From positions 9,176,001-9,240,000 of the forward strand of contig OZ024756.1 of assembly GCA_964016885.1 (NCBI GenBank): DNA of 64,000 nt, read 5' to 3'. Source of the DNA: Eledone cirrhosa. Lineage: Eukaryota. Each line of letters begins with the position of its first letter. The stretch's first letter is position 1. This document shows, piece by piece, positions 1 through 63,232 of this stretch. Position numbers and translations under genes: made by a program. The notes under the pieces were generated by a model that saw only the letters and a program-made list of their open reading frames with translations, searched no databases and was not told where the DNA came from.

Positions 1-412
1 CACAGCTACAGTTGCTGTGTTGACTGCTGAGTATATTTTACACAGCTACAGCTGCTGTGTTGACTGCTGCATATATTTTACACAGCTACAGTTGCTGTGT
101 TGACTGCTGTGTATATTTTACACAGTAACAGTTGCTGTGTTGACTGCTGTGTATATTTTACACAGCTACAGTTGCTGTGTTGACTGCTGAGTATATTTTA
201 CACAGCTACAGTTGCTGTGTTGACTGCTGAGTATATTTTACACAACTACAGTTGCTGTGTTGACTGCTGCATATATTTTACACAGCTACAGTTGCTGTGT
301 TGACTGCTGCATATATTTACACAGCTACAGTCGCTGTGTTGACTGCTGCATATATTTTACACAGCTACAGTCGCTGTGTTGACTGCTGCATATATTTTAC
401 ACAGTAACAGTT
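1..412. repeat. 40-bp minisatellite
   Basis: CACAGCTACAGTTGCTGTGTTGACTGCTG.GTATATTTTA x10+. Confidence 0.95.
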
Positions 413-15465: not shown

Positions 15466-15801
15466 ATCATCATTTCATTTTACGTCCACTTTTTCCCTGC
15501 TTGCAAGGGTGGGACGGGAACTGATGCTGGCTTGATTTCTACAGCTGGATGCCCTTCCTAACACCAACCTCATTTACAGTGAGTGCGGGGTGCCTTTTTG
15601 CCGTGGCACCTCCACGACCTCTTTGCAGTGGAATGATAGGGACCCCAGTCCCTATCATCTCATTTCTACAGCTGAGTAAACTGGAGTAACGTGAAATAAA
15701 GTGTCTTGCTCAAGGAAACAACACATCACCCGGTCTGAGAATTGAACTCACAACCTTTCGATTGCAAGGCCAATGCTCTAACCACTAAGCCATGTGCCTC
15801 C
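15466..15801 (-). mobile_element. SINE family A copy
   Basis: Reverse complement of 767-1102. Confidence 0.88.
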
Positions 15802-20644: not shown

Positions 20645-20924
20645 CTATTACGTTTCCTATAATTGCTTTATTGCTTTATTGTATGATACTTATTTCTGTG
20701 ACACAGATGCTCATATATGCTTGCCAAACACACAAGAAGAAGGACGTTTTTTTTGCCTGCAGCATATCACATAATCGGAGTTTCATCTGAAGATATCATT
20801 CTCATAACAACAAATGTATATATTACATCTGAGATTGCATAAGAGAACCATTGAAATAATTATAATGAATAAACAATTTATGTAATATCAGCATCTTTTT
20901 TTATGTTATTCTTATATATATATA

Positions 20925-28056: not shown

Positions 28057-30205
28057 TTATTTATTTATATTTATAATGATGTCGATATATTTTTATGAAA
28101 AAAAAAAAAAATAATAATAATAATAACTTGAAGATTTCTTCGTTAATCTTTAGAAAAATAATATTGAAAAATCGAAGAACTCAAAACTTTCGAACGTCAA
28201 ATATTTGATTATATGGTTAGCAGTGAGATGGTTCAACTGATAGATATATATATTTATATATATATATAAATTATATATATAATTTCGAGAATAATATGGC
28301 TCAGTCATATTATCTTCGATATGATGAAAGCACCTTACTTAAAATCAACTCTAACTGCAGTCTCCAAATACCTTAATTAGTTGACCAGCTTCAAAACAGC
28401 TGGGATTTTTAGACAAAATTATGAATGGCCTTCTTCACTGCTACACATCAGACGTAGTATAGTGGAAACGTAAATCAGATATGCTCTGATAATACAGAGC
28501 ACTTAATAGGTATATCGCAAAGATTTTCTGCAGATATGATTTTAAGAATTTCTTTTTATCTAGTGGCTGTTTATGTAACCACCGTTCAAGATTTCTACGA
28601 TTTGAATGGAATAGCCTGAAAATAAACAACAACCACCCCATTCTCGTTCATGTATCTAAAATGGACCACAGATGTATTATGGTGTGTCTTATCTCCACCA
28701 AACGTATTCTTAATAATCATAGAAGGAAGAAACATTTAGAATGATATTTAAAGTAAATTGTTACACGATGCTCCTACATACAAATGCATATATATATATG
28801 TGTGTGTGTGTGTGTTGAAAACAAAGCGAGGTTTCACATTAAGGTCTGTATTTATTATAAACAGTTATGATCGTTTCACAGATGGGTGTCTTAGGATCTA
28901 TATTAATGCTATAGACCCGACTCTAGTCTGATCTGCTCATCAGATTTGTTAACCAAGCAAAGCCAAAATCTCATATATATATATATTTACGTGTGTAATG
29001 ATCGTTTTTACGAGAAGTGGATCTATATAGTAAATTACTGATCAACTTATAGAAGGAGTGAAAGGGTAGATCAATCTTCAATCTTGCCCTAATCCACTGT
29101 TTTTCAGTCATCTGCGGTGGTCGATAGAATAAGTTCCAGTGATAAACTGGGGATCGATTCAGTCGCCTATACTCCCAACCGTGACGAAATTTAAACCTTA
29201 TAACTCTAAGGTCAGAAAGCAATATTTCCACTGAGCTGGCAAAGAGCCAAACCAAAATAGTTCCAAGTCGATATAGCACGCACTAATAATATACTACGGT
29301 CGGTTATACCGTTAATAAAATTGGTCTTTTGGTTATCCCTAAAAACCTATATTGGTACTGTTGGTTTGTAATGAACTTCAGTTAGTGTTGCCAGCGATCC
29401 AGTCATGTACACACCACTAAATCTCTTAAGAACACGTCAAGCATTCTATTTCACTCTGTATCTCTAACGGTGTTCGTATTTAGTGGAAATGGGTTTGCTG
29501 TACCCGTGTGTAATGATTTTAACCAATTCATCATCATCATCATCATTATCATCATCGTTTAACATCCATTTTGTTTTCCACGCTAGCATGGGTTAGACGA
29601 GTTGCCCTGTTATGAAACAAGCCAGATCAGGTGACTGTGTCTTGCTGCTCATACAGAACTGTTTCTGGCTTGGTTTCTACAGCTGGATGCCCTGCCGCCT
29701 AACATTAACTACATTTACAGCATTACTGGGTGCTTTTTATCGTGGCACCAAAACGACCACGTTACAGGGTGGAACAAGTGCTTTTTGTCGTGTCTCCTAC
29801 ATGGCTGCTTTACAGTGTGGACTGGGTGCTTTTTGTCGTGGCACCAACACTACCACCTTACAGAGTGGACTGGGTGTTTTTTGTCATGTCACCAACACTA
29901 CCACCTTGCAAGGTGGACTGGGTGTTTTTTGTCGTGTCACTAACACAACTGCCTTACAGAGTGGACTTATTTGTCATGTCAGTTGACATATAATTGAGGC
30001 TGCTTTTTCTCACTACCCAAGCAGCTATATTCAACATACATGTAACCTGTTGAATATAGCCAGCTGGTCAGAGATTGAGAAAATGCTGTCCTGTTTTCTT
30101 AAGTAATTTATAAAAGTTTTATTCTCCAAATTTGCAATAATAAAGAGAAAAGATTAAAGAGCAAAAACAAGGGAAGGAAGGAGCATCAGATTGTACACCT
30201 TACCT

Positions 30206-30549
30206 GGAGGCACATGGCTTAGTGGTTAGAGCATTGGCCTTGCAATCGAAAGGTTGTGAGTTCAATTCTCAGACCGGGTGATGTGTTGTTTCCTTGAGCA
30301 AGACACTTTATTTCACATTGCTCCAGTTTACTCAGCTGTAGAAATGAGATGATAGGGACTGGGGTCCCTATCATTCCACTGTAAAGTGGTCATGGAGGTG
30401 CCACAGCAAAAAAGGACCCAGCACTCACTGTAAATGAGGTTGGTGTTAGGAAGGGCATCCAGCTGTAGATATCAAGCCAGAATCAGTTCCCGTCGCACCC
30501 TTGCAAGCAGGGAAAAAGCGGACGTAAAATGAAATGATGATGATGATGA
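30206..30549 (+). mobile_element. SINE family A copy
   Basis: Near-identical to 767-1102. Confidence 0.88.
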
Positions 30550-41398: not shown

Positions 41399-41727
41399 TC
41401 ATCATTTTACGTCCGGTTTTCCCTGCTTGCAAGGGTGGGACGGGAACTGATTCTGGCTTGATTTCTACAGCTGGATGCCCTTCCTAACACCAACCTCATT
41501 TACAGTGAGTGCTGGGTGCTTTTTTGCCGTGGCACCTCCATGACCACTTTGCAGTGGAATGATATGGACCCCAGTCCCTATCATCTCATTTCTACAACTG
41601 AGTAAACTGGAGCAACGTGAAATAAAGTGTCTTGCTCAAGGAAACAACACATCACCCGGTCTGAGAATTGAACTCAGAACCTTTCGATTGCAAGGCCAAT
41701 GCTCTAACCACTAAGCCATGTGCCTCC
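41399..41727 (-). mobile_element. SINE family A copy
   Basis: Reverse complement of 767-1102. Confidence 0.88.
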
Positions 41728-41736
41728 ATGTATATA

Positions 41737-41925
41737 TAATTGTTTCTACTTTTGGCACAAGGCCAGCAATTACCCAGTACATTACTAGTACTTTATTTTA
41801 TCGACCCCCTAAGGATGAAAGGCAAAGTTAACCTCGGCGGGATTTGAACTCAGATCGTAAAGGGGCGTAACTACGCTAGAAAACATGTCTGACCCTCTAC
41901 CAATACTGCCATAATGTTAGGCGGT
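41737..41925 (-). mobile_element. Meta-domain-like tRNA SINE; also ~1345-1449, 3515-3640, 16420-16620, 24530-24728, 25276-25660, 42350-42517
   Basis: GAGTTCAAATCCCGCCGAGGT.AACTTTGCCTTTCATCCTT..GGGGTCGATAAA.TAAAGTACCAG. Confidence 0.72.
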
Positions 41926-42015
41926 AACAAGTCTGAAGAGTAGATCAGGCTGGAGTCGGGTCTATAGCGGCGTTAATATCCTGAGACAGCAATCTGTGAA
42001 ACGGTCGTAACTGTG
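41926..42015 (+). ncRNA. Hammerhead-like motif with long stem II insert; second copy at 28861-28951 (-)
   Basis: AGT CTGAAGA GTAGAT..~46 nt..ATCTGT GAAA CGGTCG TA ACT. Confidence 0.6.
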
Positions 42016-42703
42016 TATAAGAGAGACCTTAATGTGAAACCTCGCTTTGTTTCCAATATATATATATTGGGTGTATAGGTTACACGACAAAAAGCGCCCA
42101 GCACACACTGTAAAGTGGTCGTGTAGGTGACATGACAAAAAGCACCCAACACACACTGTAAATGTGGTTGGTGTCAGGAAGGGCATCCAGCCAAAGAAAT
42201 CAACCCAAAACCAGTCTTATATAAACAAGTCATGGTCATCTGACCTGGCTTGTCTCATAATGGCACAACCCGTCTAACCCATGCTAGCATGGAAAATGAA
42301 CATTTAGTGATGATGATGATATATATATATATTTATATATTTTATATTACATTAGTCGGACGCCATGCTTTCCAGCATAGTTACGTCCCTTGATGGTCTG
42401 AGTTCAAATCCCGCCGAGGTTGACTTTGCCTTTCATCCTTACGGGGTCGATAAAATAAAGTACCAGTAATGTACTGGTTAATTGCTGGCCTTGTGCCAAA
42501 AGTAGAAACAATTATTAATTTACAATTGGCCTCTCATTGGTTCATTGCATTTCCAAAGGTGAGAGTAACAGGGAGCTCTCAGTGTAACTTGGGCAAAACA
42601 AATATCAAAAGGGATTTTTGTTTGAAATCACCAGTTTTATTGGTTTCTACAAAAATGTTTATAATGTTTACCCATCATGATCATTATCACTGTTTAACAC
42701 CTG

Positions 42704-44520
42704 CTTTTCCATGCCTACATGGGTTAGACAACTCTTTTCCATGCCTACATGGGTTAGACAACTCCTTTCCATGCCTACATGGGTTAGACAACTCCTTTCC
42801 ATGCCTACATGGGTTAGACAACTCTTTTCCATGCCTACATGGGTTAGACAACTCCTTTCCATGCCTACATGGGTTAGACAACTCCTTTCCATGCCTACAT
42901 GGGTTAGACAACTCCTTTCCATGCCTACATGGGTTAGACAACTCTTTTCCATGCCTACATGGGTTAGACAACTCCTTTCCATGCCTACATGGGTTAGACA
43001 ACTCCTTTCCATGTTTGCATTGGTTAGACAACTTCTTTCCATGCCTACATGGGTTAGACAACTCCTTTCCATGTTTGCATTGGTTAGACAACTCCTTTCC
43101 ATGCCTACATGGGTTAGACAACTCCTTTCCATGCCTACATGGGTTAGACAACTCCTTTCCATGTTTGCATTGGTTAGACAACTCCTTTCCATGCCTACAT
43201 GGGTTAGACAACTCCTTTCCATGCCTACATGGGTTAGACAACTCCTTTCCATGTTTGCATTGGTTAGACAACTCCTTTCCATGCCTACATGGGTTAGACA
43301 ACTCCTTTCCATGCCTACATGGGTTAGACAACTCCTTTCCATGTTTGCATTGGTTAGACAACTCCTTTCCATGCCTACATGGGTTAGACAACTCCTTTCC
43401 ATGCCTACATGGGTTAGACAACTCCTTTCCATGCCTACATGGGTTAGACAACTCTTTTCCATGCCTACATGGGTTAGACAACTCCTTTCCATGCCTACAT
43501 GGGTTAGACAACTCCTTTCCATGTTTGCATTGGTTAGACAACTTCTTTCCATGCCTACATGGGTTAGACAACTCCTTTCCATGTTTGCATTGGTTAGACA
43601 ACTCCTTTCCATGCCTACATGGGTTAGACAACTCCTTTCCATGCCTACATGGGTTAGACAACTCCTTTCCATGTTTGCATTGGTTAGACAACTCCTTTCC
43701 ATGCCTACATGGGTTAGACAACTCCTTTCCATGCCTACATGGGTTAGACAACTCCTTTCCATGCCTACATGGGTTAGACAACTCTTTTCCATGTTTGCAT
43801 TGGTTAGACAACTCCTTTCCATGCCTACATGGGTTAGACAATTCCTTTCCATGCCTACATGGGTTAGACAACTCCTTTCCATGCCTACATGGGTTAGACA
43901 ACTCCTTTCCATGCCTACATGGGTTAGACAACTCTTTTCCATACTTGCATTGGTTAGACAACTCCTTTCCATGCCTACATGGGTTAGACAACTCCTTTCC
44001 ATGCCTACATGGGTTAGACAACTCCTTTCCATGCCTACATGGGTTAGACAACTCTTTTCCATGTTTGCATTGGTTAGACAACTCCTTTCCATGCCTACAT
44101 GGGTTAGACAATTCCTTTCCATGCCTACATGGGTTAGACAACTCCTTTCCATGCCTACATGGGTTAGACAACTCCTTTCCATGCCTACATGGGTTAGACA
44201 ACTCCTTTCCATGTTTGCATTGGTTAGACAACTCCTTTCCATGCCTACATGGGTTAGACAACTCCTTTCCATGCCTACATGGGTTAGACAACTCCTTTCC
44301 ATGCCTACATGGGTTAGACAACTCTTTTCCATGTTTGCATTGGTTAGACAACTCCTTTCCATGCCTACATGGGTTAGACAATTCCTTTCCATGCCTACAT
44401 GGGTTAGACAACTCCTTTCCATGCCTACATGGGTTAGACAACTCCTTTCCATGCCTACATGGGTTAGACAACTCCTTTCCATGCCTACATGGGTTAGACA
44501 ACTCTTTTCCATACTTGCAT
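42704..44520. repeat. 30-bp minisatellite (~60 copies) derived from the RTE 3' terminus
   Basis: TTTCCATGCCTACATGGGTTAGACAACTCC with variant ATGTTTGCATTGG. Confidence 0.95.
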
Positions 44521-45397: not shown

Positions 45398-47800
45398 TTA
45401 ACCTTTTAGCATTTAAACCAGCAGTATCTGGCCAGAATTCTCTCACATCTTTCGTTCAAACCGGCTGTAACTGGCCACTCATATTGATGTTAAGGTATTG
45501 TTCCCAAAATAAATAATATCGAAATTTCATTGATTCGATATTATGTGAAGTAATTATCTAAGATAAAGTCTTTACTGTGCAAATACAATTCTCTCACATC
45601 TGTTGTTCAAACCGGCTGTAACTGACCACTCATACTGATGTTAAGGTATTGTTCTCAAAAAAATATATTAAAATCTCATTGATTCGATATTATGTGAAGT
45701 AATTATCTAAGATAAAGCCTTTACAGTGAAAATACAATAGTATATATAGAGTAATGTAAATGCTAAAGGGTTATTATGTGAGGTAAAGCCTTTACAGTGA
45801 AAATACAATAGTATATATAGAGTAATGTAAATGTTATGTGAGATATGGGAGGTAAAGCCTTTACTGTGAAAATATAATAGTATATATAGAGTAATGTAGA
45901 TGTTATGTGAGGTAAAGCCTTTACTGTGAAAATACAATAGTATATATAGAGTAATGTAAATGTTATGCGAGGTAAAGCCTTTACTTAGAAAATACAATAG
46001 TATATATAGAGTAATGTAAATGTTATGTGAAATATTATGTGGGGTAAAGCCTTTACTGTGAAAATACAATAGTGTATATAGAGTAATGTAAATGTTATAT
46101 CAAATATTATGTGAGGTAAAGCCTTTACTGTGAAAATACAATAGTATATATAGAGTAATGTAAATGTTATGTGAGGTAAAGACTTTACTGTGAAAATACA
46201 ATAGTATATATAGAGTAATGTAAATATTATGTGAGGTAAAACCATTACTGTGAAAATATAATAGTAAATATAGAGTAATGTACATGTTATGTGAGATATT
46301 ATGTGATGTAAAGCTTTTACTGTGAAAATACAATAGTATATATAGAGTAATGTAAATGTTATGCGAGATATTATGTGAGGTAAAGCCTTTACTGTGAAAA
46401 TACAATAGTATATATAGAGTAATGTAAATGTTATATGAAATATTATGTGAGGTAAAGCCTTTACAGTGAAAATATAATAGTATATATACAGTAATATAAA
46501 TGCTATGTGAGATATTACATGAGGTAAAGCCTTTACTGTGAAAATACAATAGTATATATAGAGTAATGTAAATGTTATGAGATATTACGTAAGGTAAAGC
46601 CTTTACTGTGAAAATACAATAGAATATATAGAGTAATGTAAATGTTATGTGAGATATTATGTGAGGTAAGACCTTTACTATGAAAATACAATAGTATATA
46701 TAGAGTAATGTAAATGCTATGTGAGATATTATGTGAGGTAAAGCCTTTACAGTGAAAATACAATAGTATATATAATGTAAATGCTATGTGAGATATTATG
46801 TGAGGTAAAGACTTTACTGTGAAAATACAATAGTATATATAGAGTAGTGTAAATGCTATGTGAGATATTATGTGAGGTAAAGCCTTTACTGTGAAAATAC
46901 AATAGTATATATAGAGTAATGTAAATGTTATGTGAGATATTATGTGAGGTAAAGCCTTTACTGTGAAAATACAATAGTATATATAGAGTAATGTAAATGT
47001 TATGTGAGATATTATGTGAGGTAAAGCCTTTACTGTGAAAATACAATAGTATATATAGAGTAATGTAAATGTTATGTGAGATATGTGAGGTAAAGCCTTT
47101 ACTGTGGAAATACAATAGTATATATAGAGTAATGTAAATGCTATGTGAGATATTATGTGAGGTAAAGACTTTACTGTGAAAATACAATAGTATATATAGA
47201 GTAATGTAAATGTTATGTGAGATATTATGTGAGGTAAAGCCTTTACTGTGAAAATACAATAGTATATATAGAGTAATGTAAATGCTATGTGAGATATTAT
47301 GTGAGGTAAAGACTTTACTGTGAAAATACAATAGTATATATAGAGTAATGTAAATGTTATGTGAGATATTATGTGAGGTAAAGCCTTTACTGTGAAAATA
47401 CAATAGTATATATAGAGTAATGTAAATGCTATGTGAGATATTATGTGAGGTAAAGACTTTACTGTGAAAATACAATAGTATATATAGAGTAATGTAAATG
47501 TTATGTGAGATATTATGTGAGGTAAAGCCTTTACAGTGAAAATACAATAGTATATATAGAGTAATGTAAATGCTATGTGAGATATTATGTGAGGTAAAGC
47601 CTTTACTGTGAAAATACAATAGTATATATAGAGTAATGTAAATGTTATGTGAGATATTATGTGAGGTAAAGCCTTTACTGTGAAAATACAATAGTATATA
47701 TAGAGTAATGTAAATGTTATGTGAGATATTATGTGAGGTAAAGCCTTTACAGTGAAAATACAATAGTATATATAGAGTAATGTAAATGCTAAAGGGTTAA
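45398..47800. repeat. piggyBac MITE-derived 60/72-bp satellite (~2 kb)
   Basis: Unit GTGAGGTAAAGCCTTTACTGTGAAAATACAATAGTATATATAGAGTAATGTAAATGTTAT(+GTGAGATATTAT); bounded by MITE TIR/TTAA ends. Confidence 0.9.
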
Positions 47801-53912: not shown

Positions 53913-53948
53913 TCTTAACGTTTCGGACGCTAGTCCTTCATCAGAAGA
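53913..53948 (-). ncRNA. Minimal type-I hammerhead ribozyme motif (Penelope-type)
   Basis: TCTT CTGATGA A GGAC TAGC GTCC GAAAC GTT AAGA: complete core, stems I and II paired, palindromic ACGT stem III. Confidence 0.75.
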
Positions 53949-54551: not shown

Positions 54552-54884
54552 GGAGGCACATGGCTTAGTGGTTAGAGCATTGGCCTTGTAATCGAAAGGT
54601 TGTGAGTTCAATTCTCAGACCGGGTGATATGTTGTGTCCTTGAGCAAGACACTTTATTTCACATTGCTCCAGTTTACTCAGCTGTAGAAATGAGATGATA
54701 GGGACTGGGGTCCCTATCATTCCACTGTAAAGTGGACGTGTAGGCGCCACGGAAAAAAAGCACCCAGCACTCACTGTAAATGAGGTTAGTGTTAGGAAGG
54801 GCATCCAGCTGTAGAAATCAAGCCAGAATCAGTTCCCGTCCCACCCTTGCAAGCAGGGAAAAAGCAGGCGTAAAATGAAATGAA
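54552..54884 (+). mobile_element. SINE family A copy
   Basis: Near-identical to 767-1102. Confidence 0.88.
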
Positions 54885-58938: not shown

Positions 58939-59285
58939 GGAGGCACATGGCTTAGTGGTTAGAGCATTGGCCTTGCAATCGAAAGATTGTGAGTTCAATT
59001 CTCAGACCGGGTGATGTGTTGTTTCCTTGAGCAAGACACTTTATTTCACATTGCTCCAGTTTACTCAGCTGTAGAAATGAGATGATAGGGACTGGGGTTC
59101 CTATCATTCCACTGCAAAGTGGTCGTGGAGGCGCCACGGCTAAAAAGCACCCAGCACTCACTGTAAATGAGGTTGGTGTTAAGAAGGGCATCCAACTGTA
59201 GAAATCAAGCCAGAATCAGTTCCCGTCCCACCCTTGCAAGCAGGGAAAAGTGGACGTAAAATGAAATGATGATGATGAAATGATG
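58939..59285 (+). mobile_element. SINE family A copy
   Basis: Near-identical to 767-1102. Confidence 0.88.
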
Positions 59286-59941: not shown

Positions 59942-61920
59942 GTATACCCCAGTCTACATAATAAATATATACACCTCAGTCTAGAGTATATATATGTATG
60001 TAGAGGAATATATATACCCCAGTCTAGAGTATATAATATATATATATGTATGTAGAGGAATATATATACCCTAGTCTAGAGTATATAATATATATATATG
60101 TATATATGTATGTAGAGGAATATATATACCCCAGTCTAGAGTATATAATATATATATATATGTATGTAGAGGAATATATGTACCCCAGTCTAGAGTATAT
60201 AATATATATATATGTATGTAGAGGAATATATATACCCCAGTCTAGAGTATATAATATATATATATGTATGTAGAGGAATATATATACCCCAGTCTAGAGT
60301 ATATAATATATATATATGTATGTAGAGGAATATATATACCCCAGTCTAGAGTATATAATATATATATATGTATGTAGAGGAATATATGTACCTCAGTCTA
60401 GAGTATATAATATATATATATGTATGTAGAGGAATATATATACCCTAGTCTAGAGTATGTAATATATATATATATGTATGTAGAGGAATATATGTACCCC
60501 AGTCTAGAGTATGTAATATATATATGTATGTAGAGGAATATATATACCCCAGTCTAGAGTATATAATAAATATATATATGTATGTAGAGGAATATATATA
60601 CCCCAGTCTAGAGTATATAATATATATATATGTATGTAGAGGAATATATATACCCCAGTCTAGAGTATATAATATATATATATGTATGTAGAGGAATATA
60701 TATACCCCAGTTTAGAGTATATAATATATATATATGTATGTAGAGGAATATATGTACCCCAGTCTAGAGTATATAATATATATGTATGTAGAGGAATATA
60801 TATACCCCAGTCTAGAGTATATAATATATATATATGTATGTAGAGGAATATATATACCCCAGTCTAGAGTATATAATAAATATATATACTTGCGTAGATT
60901 AGAAAGAAACGAAGCCTGCATGCTCCGATGGATGTGTAATAGTAATATACGCGAACAGCAAAGCTTAAATGAATTGAGAGAGAGACTGAGCATAAGAGGA
61001 ATCAAATGCTGTGTGCAGGAGAGGCGGTTGCGTTGGTATGGACATGTGATGCATATGAAGGATGACAGCTGCATAAAAAGGTGCAGAGCACTAGAAGTCG
61101 ATGGAAGCCGCAGAGTGGGGAAACCCAAGAAGACCTGGGATGAGGTGATAAAAGCCGACCTTACCCAATTACACCTCTCAAAGGCAATGACACATGACCG
61201 TGACCTCTGGCGTCACGCAGTAATACAGAGTACCCGACCGCCCACGGGTACAAGCCGAAGCTGAAGCATATAGACAATATGCCCCCACAACCTCCCACTG
61301 CAAGGTGGTCGTGGAGGTGCCACGGCAAAAAAGCACCCAGCCCACACTGTAAATGAGGTTGGTGTTAGGAAGGGCATCCAGCTGTAGAAATCAAGCCAAA
61401 TCAGTTCCTGTATGAGCAAGGCATGGTCAGCCGACCAGACACTGCCCACAACAGGACAACCCGTCTAACCCATGCTAGTGTGGAAGAACGGACGTAAAAC
61501 GGTGATGATGATGATGAGAGGAATATATACCCCAGTCTAGATTATATAATATATATATATATAGAAGACTATATATACCCCAGTCTAGAGTATATAATAT
61601 ATATATATATATATACCCCAGTCTAGAGTATATATATATAGAGAGGAATATATACCCCAGTTTAGAGTATATAATATATATATATGTATAGAGGACTATA
61701 TATACCCCAGTCTAGAGTATATAATATATATATAGAGAGAGGACTATATATACCCCAGTCTAGAGTATATAATATATATATATATAGAGAGGAATATATA
61801 CCCCAGTCTAGATTATATAATATATATATATATAGAGGACTATATATACCCCAGTCTAGATTATATAATATATATATATATAGAGGACTATATATACCCC
61901 AGTCTAGAGTATATAATATA

Positions 61921-61954
<34 letters not shown>

Positions 61955-63190
61955 CCCCAGTCTAGAGTATATATATATATAGAGGAATATATACCCCAGT
62001 TTAGAGTATATAATATATATGTATAGAGGAATATATATACCCCAGTCTAGAGTATATAATATATATATATAGAGGAATATATACCCCAGTCTAGAGTATA
62101 TAATATATATATATATATAGAGGAATATATACCCCAGTCTAGAGTATATAATATATATATATATATATAGAGGAATATATACCCCAGTCTGGCGTATATA
62201 ATATATATATATGTAGAGGAATATATATACCCCAGTCTAGAGTATATAATATATATATATGTAGAGGAATATATATACCCCAGTCTAGAGTGTATAATAT
62301 ATATATATATGTAGAGGACTATATATACCCCAGTCTAGAGTATATAATATATATATATGTAGAGGAATATATATACCCCAGTCTAGAGTGTATAATATAT
62401 ATATATATGTAGAGGACTATATATACCCCAGTCTAGCGTATATAATATATATATATGTAGAGGAATATATATACCCCAGTCTAGAGTGTATAATATATAT
62501 ATATGTAGAGGAATATATATACCCCAGTCTAGAGTGTATAATATATATATATGTAGAGGACTATATATACCCCAGTCTAGAGTATATAATATATATATAT
62601 ATAGAGGAATATATACCCCAGTCTAGAGTATATAATATATATATATATATAGAGGAATATATACCCCAGTCTAGCGTATATAATATATATATATGTAGAG
62701 GAATATATATACCCCAGTCTAGAGTATATAATATATATATATGTAGAGGAATATATATACCCCAGTCTAGAGTGTATAATATATATATATATATGTAGAG
62801 GACTATATATACCCCAGTCTAGAGTATATAATATATATATATGTAGAGGAATATATATACCCCAGTCTAGAGTGTATAATATATATATATATGTAGAGGA
62901 CTATATATACCCCAGTCTAGCGTATATAATATATATATATGTAGAGGAATATATATACCCCAGTCTAGAGTGTATAATATATATATATGTAGAGGAATAT
63001 ATATACCCCAGTCTAGAGTGTATAATATATATATATGTAGAGGACTATATATACCCCAGTCTAGAGTATATAATATATATATATATAGAGGAATATATAC
63101 CCCAGTCTAGAGTATATAATATATATATATATATATACCGCAGTCTAGAGTATATAATATATATATATATATATATACCGCAGTCTAGAG

Positions 63191-63232
<42 letters not shown>

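Follow-up and report, generated by a model that had tools for sequence, protein, structure and literature searches.

Hammerhead ribozymes are already known to be associated with Penelope-like elements (PLEs). Cervera and de la Pena (2014; PMC4209133) described minimal hammerheads in the pLTRs of metazoan PLEs, mostly as solo truncated copies, and a dimer-type design of PLE hammerheads has also been described (PMC6765202). As presented by Craig et al. (2021; PMC8557442), PLEs give inverted, 5'-truncated copies with a tail at one end, and the Hydra clade carries a CxCX5C linker together with CxxC and CxH motifs; the stems II of animal Hydra hammerheads given in File S2 of that paper are 3-7 bp long with 3-10-nt loops (7 bp and 8 nt in Hydra-1_oBim). 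For PAc Poseidon, Frangieh et al. (2024; PMC11167929) reported that the tail comes from two internal RT start sites, that the uncut RNA is the main template, that the ribozyme needs the protein in order to cut, and that insertion can proceed without the ribozyme. Retrozymes are described as arrays of tandem units, each of which contains a ribozyme (PMC7229834; bioRxiv 10.64898/2026.07.22.740005).

The window analysed here, a stretch of 64,000 nucleotides from Eledone cirrhosa, contains two copies of a repeat, called family A. Quite probably, these are two decayed repeats carrying a type I hammerhead motif whose stem II has 59 nt; they likely represent the 5'-truncated pseudo-LTR ends of an extinct Hydra-clade PLE. 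Their features are given below, positions such as -33 or +130 being numbered from the C of CUGA.

41925-42062 (+): copy 1 of family A, 5'-truncated at -8, with a short 3' end (+128 to +134) and tail-less
41933..41939 (+): hammerhead core CUGAAGA of copy 1, from sequence
41940..41997 (+): elongated stem II of copy 1, 58 nt compared with 59 in the consensus, its apical part decayed
41953..41957 (+): module of the internal loop, 5' strand (G[AG]UC), copy 1
41983..41986 (+): 3' strand of the module, copy 1; GA[G]C in the family, with the closing C changed to A here
41998..42009 (+): GAAA and the self-complementary stem III ACGGUCGU (42001-42008), copy 1
42009/42010 (+): predicted cleavage after GUA, copy 1, as placed by the hammerhead consensus
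42057..42068 (+): (TA)n target microsatellite beside copy 1
28815-28974 (-): copy 2 of family A, starting at -31, with a short 3' end, within a (TA)n/(CA)n tract
28937..28943 (-): core CUGAUGA, copy 2
28878..28936 (-): 59-nt elongated stem II, copy 2
28866..28877 (-): GAAA, decayed stem III (ACGAUCAU) and AUA triplet, copy 2

In both copies CUGA(A/U)GA, stem II, GAAAC, a stem III with a 4-nt loop and UA-ACUG follow one another in this order, and the two 6-nt strands of stem II are separated by 46 nt in copy 1 and 47 nt in copy 2. An earlier sequence-only reading of the window had proposed that 41926-42057 (+) and 28815-28951 (-) are homologous, and the shared core, stem II, GAAAC and UA-ACUG bear this out. 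Both copies were located, the second reaching 28974, that is, 23 nt further 5' than had been proposed, and both do continue for about 50 nt into (TA)n or (CA)n(TA)n. The supposed two-copy family is in fact dispersed over the genome in several hundred copies. The palindrome ACGATCGT put forward as the consensus of stem III proved to be a hybrid of the two decayed copies: only 2 of 178 copies have that octamer, the commonest one being ACGGTCGT (31/178), and the position at which ACGATCGT deviates is G in 167 of 184 copies. The palindrome claim was nevertheless right in spirit, since all five multi-copy families examined have a self-complementary stem III. As for the proposed GUA cleavage site, only copy 1 has it and copy 2 reads AUA; because of this triplet the C15.2-G16.2 pair is broken, and the hammerhead of copy 2 is probably impaired. 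Copy 1 has lost most of stem I, a 4-nt deletion has removed its AATAAA, and the start of copy 2 (-31) falls inside the cluster of family A 5' ends described below. The two window copies fold worse than the family A consensus (z of +0.4 and -2.0) and are neutral fossils. An Rfam search of the 64-kb window returned no hammerhead match at E<=1, and a search of four loci returned none at E<=0.01.

A long stem II is not peculiar to these two copies within the window, as had been thought, because a third hammerhead-like motif at 20787-20864 (+) has a 59-nt stem II of unrelated sequence. This motif has a palindromic stem III (ATAATTAT) followed by AATAAA and a TA tract; it scores 21 bits with the model R1, and its fold is no better than that of shuffled sequences. 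Another type I hammerhead of the window, at 53944 (-), is short, its stem II measuring 13 nt; its family occurs at the loci L005, L026, L057, L118 and L242 as well. Other repeats of the window include SINE tRNA-like heads (776-833, 15735-15792, 30215-30272, 41661-41718, 54561-54618 and 58948-59005; 28-36 bits with the Rfam tRNA model) and long minisatellite arrays with periods of 24-104 (42706-44512, 46224-47788 and 59987-63211 among others; 69 TRF rows).

The search for family A copies covered 3.0 Gb of genome and gave 534 first-look candidates, 40 of which were scored. A tight pattern of the family had 35 exact matches genome-wide and its reversed control had 0, so the motif is not due to chance. 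An exact 21-mer located 3' of the ribozyme matched 114 times, with 100 of the matches listed; 240 distinct pieces were collected, of which 106 hold the 21-mer, and about 500 copies are estimated by hand from alignment column frequencies. The 181 pieces longer than 100 nt have a mean identity of 87.5% to the consensus, and CpG positions are changed in 112 of 382 cells. Neither the core (35 changes in 473 cells, p=0.07) nor the module (32/364, p=0.52) is clearly better conserved than the other positions (327/3251), and among 28 copies picked regardless of their core only 3 have it intact: the genomic copies decay neutrally. Linked variants at -19, 4, 41, 44, 81 and 126 define at least two subfamilies; four of these changes lie at N7 or in a stem I bulge or yield G-U wobbles, and the change of U to C at 41 opens the loop-closing pair.

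In the consensus of 79 aligned rows, a set biased toward good copies, CUGANGA, GAAA and NUH stand in type I order, and each core position is kept in 90-99% of the rows. Judged by these letters the family A consensus is a type I hammerhead motif, for which catalysis is predicted. The consensus forms a rod made of a stem I of about 20 bp and the 59-nt stem II; the latter, once folded, is an imperfect hairpin whose 23 bp fall into five segments and are closed by a 7-nt loop. The z score of this fold is about -4, with 0-1 of 300 shuffled sequences equally stable, and one real family A copy gave -3.3; two real copies from families C and D were no better than shuffles (z of -1.4 and -0.2). The three-helix arrangement was recovered, the core-proximal named pairs of stems I and II having probabilities of 0.78-1.0 in the consensus. 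Stem III (ACGGUCGU) consists of 2 bp and a 4-nt self-complementary loop, the octamer being self-complementary through two G-U pairs. In the monomer ensemble it forms with a probability of about 0, and the octamer pairs with itself at -5.8 kcal/mol in a cofold. The first stem II pair of family A is G-U and not G10.1-C11.1, a column pair that is unpaired in 12 of 21 copies across families. No terminal loop is found at the usual 4-bp distance on stem II; an internal loop is reached after about 12 steps. A pseudoknot between the apical loop and +101..107 was rejected, as it reaches 7 bp solely in the A39 variant and shows neither covariation nor compensatory change.

By analogy, the design of family A resembles that of a dimer-type PLE hammerhead at a pseudo-LTR, with cleavage predicted. 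The type I order, the position near the 3' end and the short self-complementary stem III are likewise found in the Hydra-clade hammerheads of Craig et al. (PMC8557442), as are (TA)n insertion and, in the sister families C and E, the CxCX5C linker. A place in pLTRs, mostly as solo truncated copies, opposite-strand pairs, a palindromic helix III and a predicted action as dimers are also shared with the PLE hammerheads of Cervera and de la Pena (PMC4209133). The differences concern the stems: the helix II of the latter hammerheads has 6-8 bp beginning with G10.1-C11.1, whereas that of family A has about 23 bp and begins with G-U; and, compared with the Hydra-clade examples of PMC8557442, stem II here is 57-63 nt long with an internal loop, and stem I of family A measures about 20 bp. 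Plant PLE-X1 hammerheads, which the authors of PMC8557442 label non-canonical, have a long loop 2 (34 and 29 nt in File S2) and provide a precedent for a long stem II in PLEs; these elements are EN-minus, and comparison by eye with the examples in that paper revealed no motif common with family A.

The internal loop, G[AG]UC/GA[G]C, recurs as a module beyond family A. Clustering of 138 sequences gave five multi-copy groups (40, 38, 30, 11 and 3 members) and 16 singletons, several of which are decayed family A copies. In the 11 groups taken further, five multi-copy and six singletons, the opening G of the module lies 13-15 nt after the core and its closing C 12 nt before GAAA in 11/11 groups, a regularity to be read with the 3' anchor rule, which favours the module word. 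A pattern built from the 5' word only, leaving out the starts of families A, C and D, had 265 matches compared with 6 for the control, and of the 30 fetched matches 20 had the 3' word GAGC, absent from the pattern, exactly in place. In a sequence-only MAFFT alignment of 21 copies, 81% of the cells pair (68% in shuffled and 27-38% in slid alignments), covariation is 0.43 compared with 0.20, and both partners change in 10 of the 17 stem II pairs, these figures being for related, not independent, families and uncorrected for phylogeny. Pairs with two-sided changes did not exceed shuffles in this alignment (12 vs 11.0; 196/500), and RNAalifold on the unfitted alignment keeps only 4 pairs. The model-fitted alignment of 101 matches, which leans toward the model, gives 85% and 18/22 pairs.

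The long stem II could also be a functionless hairpin extension whose shared loop reflects common descent alone, an explanation that we hold to be a real possibility while not favouring it. The module-bearing families are homologous, there is no signal of selection within a family, and stem II inserts of 12-101 nt without the module occur in many other families, so that the length of stem II is free to vary. On the other hand, the inserts of families C, D, E and F are only 38-47% identical to that of family A, yet the loop letters and the 12-nt distance are fixed in all groups, and the flanking pairs swap: below the loop, U-A and G-C in A and G correspond to C-G and A-U in C, D, F and H. These features suggest that the fixed internal loop likely marks an extra working part of the RNA. 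Accordingly, what the sequence-only reading had called a large inserted domain is an elongated stem II hairpin with no separate fold, which does contain a conserved, position-fixed internal loop, and because of this loop and its covarying helices across families the term undescribed hammerhead variant holds in a narrower sense.

Long stems II as such occur widely in this genome: in 1.24 Mb of loci, scanned without shuffled control, type I motifs from many unrelated families had stem II regions of 12 to 101 nt. Hammerhead-like motifs with stems II of 94, 95 and 101 nt lie at L161:2394(-), L131:2983(-) and L230:3400(+), respectively, the first having 15 uninterrupted basal pairs and lying about 600 nt behind a Hydra-like ORF remnant. 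We found no published description of the module, although the variants of Lunse et al. 2017 may include long stems II, and the main text of a study of octopus repeats (PMC13282606) contains the words "hammerhead" and "ribozyme" 0 times. A metagenome scan gave 6 matches to the pattern, none of them scored by the covariance model, and viral contigs gave 0 matches. The long, motif-bearing stem II is the new feature in an otherwise familiar association.

The insertion pattern of family A was established from the 106 pieces that hold the 21-mer. Their 3' ends fall mainly at two positions, 55 at +126..138 and 32 at +198..212, and both termini continue into (TA)n, a preference seen by eye in the 3' flanks and uncounted. 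The difference corresponds to an optional tail of about 72 nt, present at one end only, compared with 30-40 bp published for PLEs. An inverted neighbour adjoins the 5' end of 44 of the 106 pieces, and among 61 distinct inverted 5'-5' pairs 40 combine a short and a tailed copy, 3 are short+short and 0 tailed+tailed. Such 5' truncation, fixed ends in (TA)n and inverted pairs with a one-sided tail are the signature of a PLE. The pattern agrees with the one given for PLEs in PMC8557442, and the two termini agree with the two internal RT start sites of PAc Poseidon (PMC11167929), which has an AT-rich target as well. Two words are common to the tails of families A, C, D and F, ACTCTG at the first 3' end and GAGTGCT inside the tail (e.g. 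+134 onward at L147; L309; L330); shared though the families have otherwise diverged, they are candidate RT start or protein-binding signals.

As in PAc, where uncut RNA is the main template, most copies read through the intact ribozyme, and 5' ends do not accumulate at the cut site, where 3 of 106 pieces start (+76..80). The idea that the copies are fossils of cut RNA was rejected for lack of an excess there. The 5' ends cluster instead at -35..-30 (22/106). The word TCAGAT at the -33 cluster is presumably initiator-like, and ATTGG/CCAAT near -90 is one that we take to be of CCAAT type. Since an extra G at -33/-32, counted as a test for a cap-derived G, is not significant (9/21 vs 30/129, p=0.07), it is from position and words that we infer that -33 is probably the transcript start; alternatively, these ends may reflect RT falling off below the base of the hairpin.

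Concerning the parent element, tblastn of PLE fragments against the 240 upstream flanks tied no consistent ORF to family A, and 25 long copies showed no linked ORF. In the longest copies the upstream side fades into TA/TG low-complexity DNA at about -350. AATAAA stands at +91 of the consensus, and no long frame lies within its ribozyme region, in which it differs from PAc, whose ORF starts inside its ribozyme (PMC11167929). Three parent candidates were discarded. The one same-strand ORF remnant, at L279, is separated from the family A copy by a hammerhead of another family with a 94-nt stem. PLE-B, a minimal hammerhead family lying upstream in L031 and L042, and a family of 775-aa PLEs were each accompanied by family A in 1 of 30 top loci; as the sole shared locus had supplied the query, both are independent neighbours in TA tracts. 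The 775-aa family (L044-L072; L203:3426-5612(-)) is young and of high copy number, with 28770 candidates, 150 scored matches at 96-100% identity and many intact frames. It carries RVT_1 and GIY-YIG by Pfam, often forms inverted pairs, and has no own hammerhead identified. The family at L031:1880-2290(-), with 2962 candidates, has a PLE 3' end in which a short, degenerate hammerhead-like motif and an internally duplicated stretch are found.

The sister families are more informative. Families C and D, with 2753 and 3009 candidates, have the module and share four words with family A, one of 8 nt and one of 4 nt within stem II and two more at and inside the tail. For family C a same-strand piece of endonuclease ORF was found in 15 of 30 loci, its end lying mostly about 0.9-1 kb before the ribozyme (range 0.6-1.5 kb), and one family E locus (L384) has the same arrangement. 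The family C endonuclease translations show the CxCX5C linker and, around a conserved E/N, CxxC and CxH, as in Hydra; since Pfam gave no match on these fragments, it is by motifs and tblastn that they are assigned to the Hydra clade. When the family C copies that had been fetched were inspected for the RWK/DKT motifs, they proved to be truncated before the N-terminal half.

These data bear on whether family A was instead a non-autonomous PLE parasite, made of promoter, ribozyme and tail (about 350-550 nt) and mobilised in trans by a Hydra-type protein, which we regard as unlikely. The absence of an ORF beside any family A copy, the common start of the 22 copies and the fading of the longest ones into low complexity would all fit such an element. 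Yet family C has a similar low-complexity 3' UTR that does lead to an ORF, and only 11 of the 106 family A copies extend beyond -35, so that a sample of this small, old family could fail to include an ORF lying 1 kb upstream. The PLE insertion hallmarks agree with the original proposal of a hammerhead-bearing retroelement; its non-autonomous part is matched at least equally well by truncated copies of an autonomous element, because of the PLE 3'-end hallmarks and the sister families lying behind a PLE ORF. A metazoan non-LTR retrozyme replicating through circular RNA, to which the type I hammerhead, the non-coding sequence and the rod-like fold could also point, is very improbable, because only one same-strand pair (within 1 kb) was found among the 240 pieces, which argues against tandem units with a ribozyme each, and because the ends of family A are set by the tail sites and not by the cut site.

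Returning to the truncated Hydra-clade PLE, its ends could have arisen as follows. The PLE endonuclease would nick (TA)n DNA, and reverse transcription would begin at one of two internal RNA sites, at about +130 and +205. The RT would copy back through the uncut ribozyme, often stopping near -33, probably the transcript start, and priming from both RNA sites would yield inverted pairs in which one partner alone is tailed. Because stem III has only 2 bp with a self-complementary loop, the ribozyme is expected to cut mainly as a dimer or with the help of protein. Roughly one helical turn up stem II, the G[AG]UC/GA[G]C loop would likely serve as a binding or docking site, for the protein of the element or for stem I, kept for as long as the families were active.

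PLE hammerheads are weak in vitro. We tentatively propose, as a possibility that we find rather doubtful at present, that a clade of animal PLEs carries a hammerhead subclass in which stem II is a defined accessory domain whose AG/G loop, fixed at one helical turn from the core, docks the element's RT/endonuclease or stem I and so switches cleavage or priming. If true, such a stem II docking domain would offer a tangible starting point, on the RNA side, for studying the 'protein-assisted' PLE ribozyme observed in vitro. As a candidate protein or docking site, the conserved, position-fixed loop is small and testable, and at least five multi-copy families supply natural variants of it. Finally, because ribozymes of this kind escape Rfam, current counts of animal hammerheads are likely too low.
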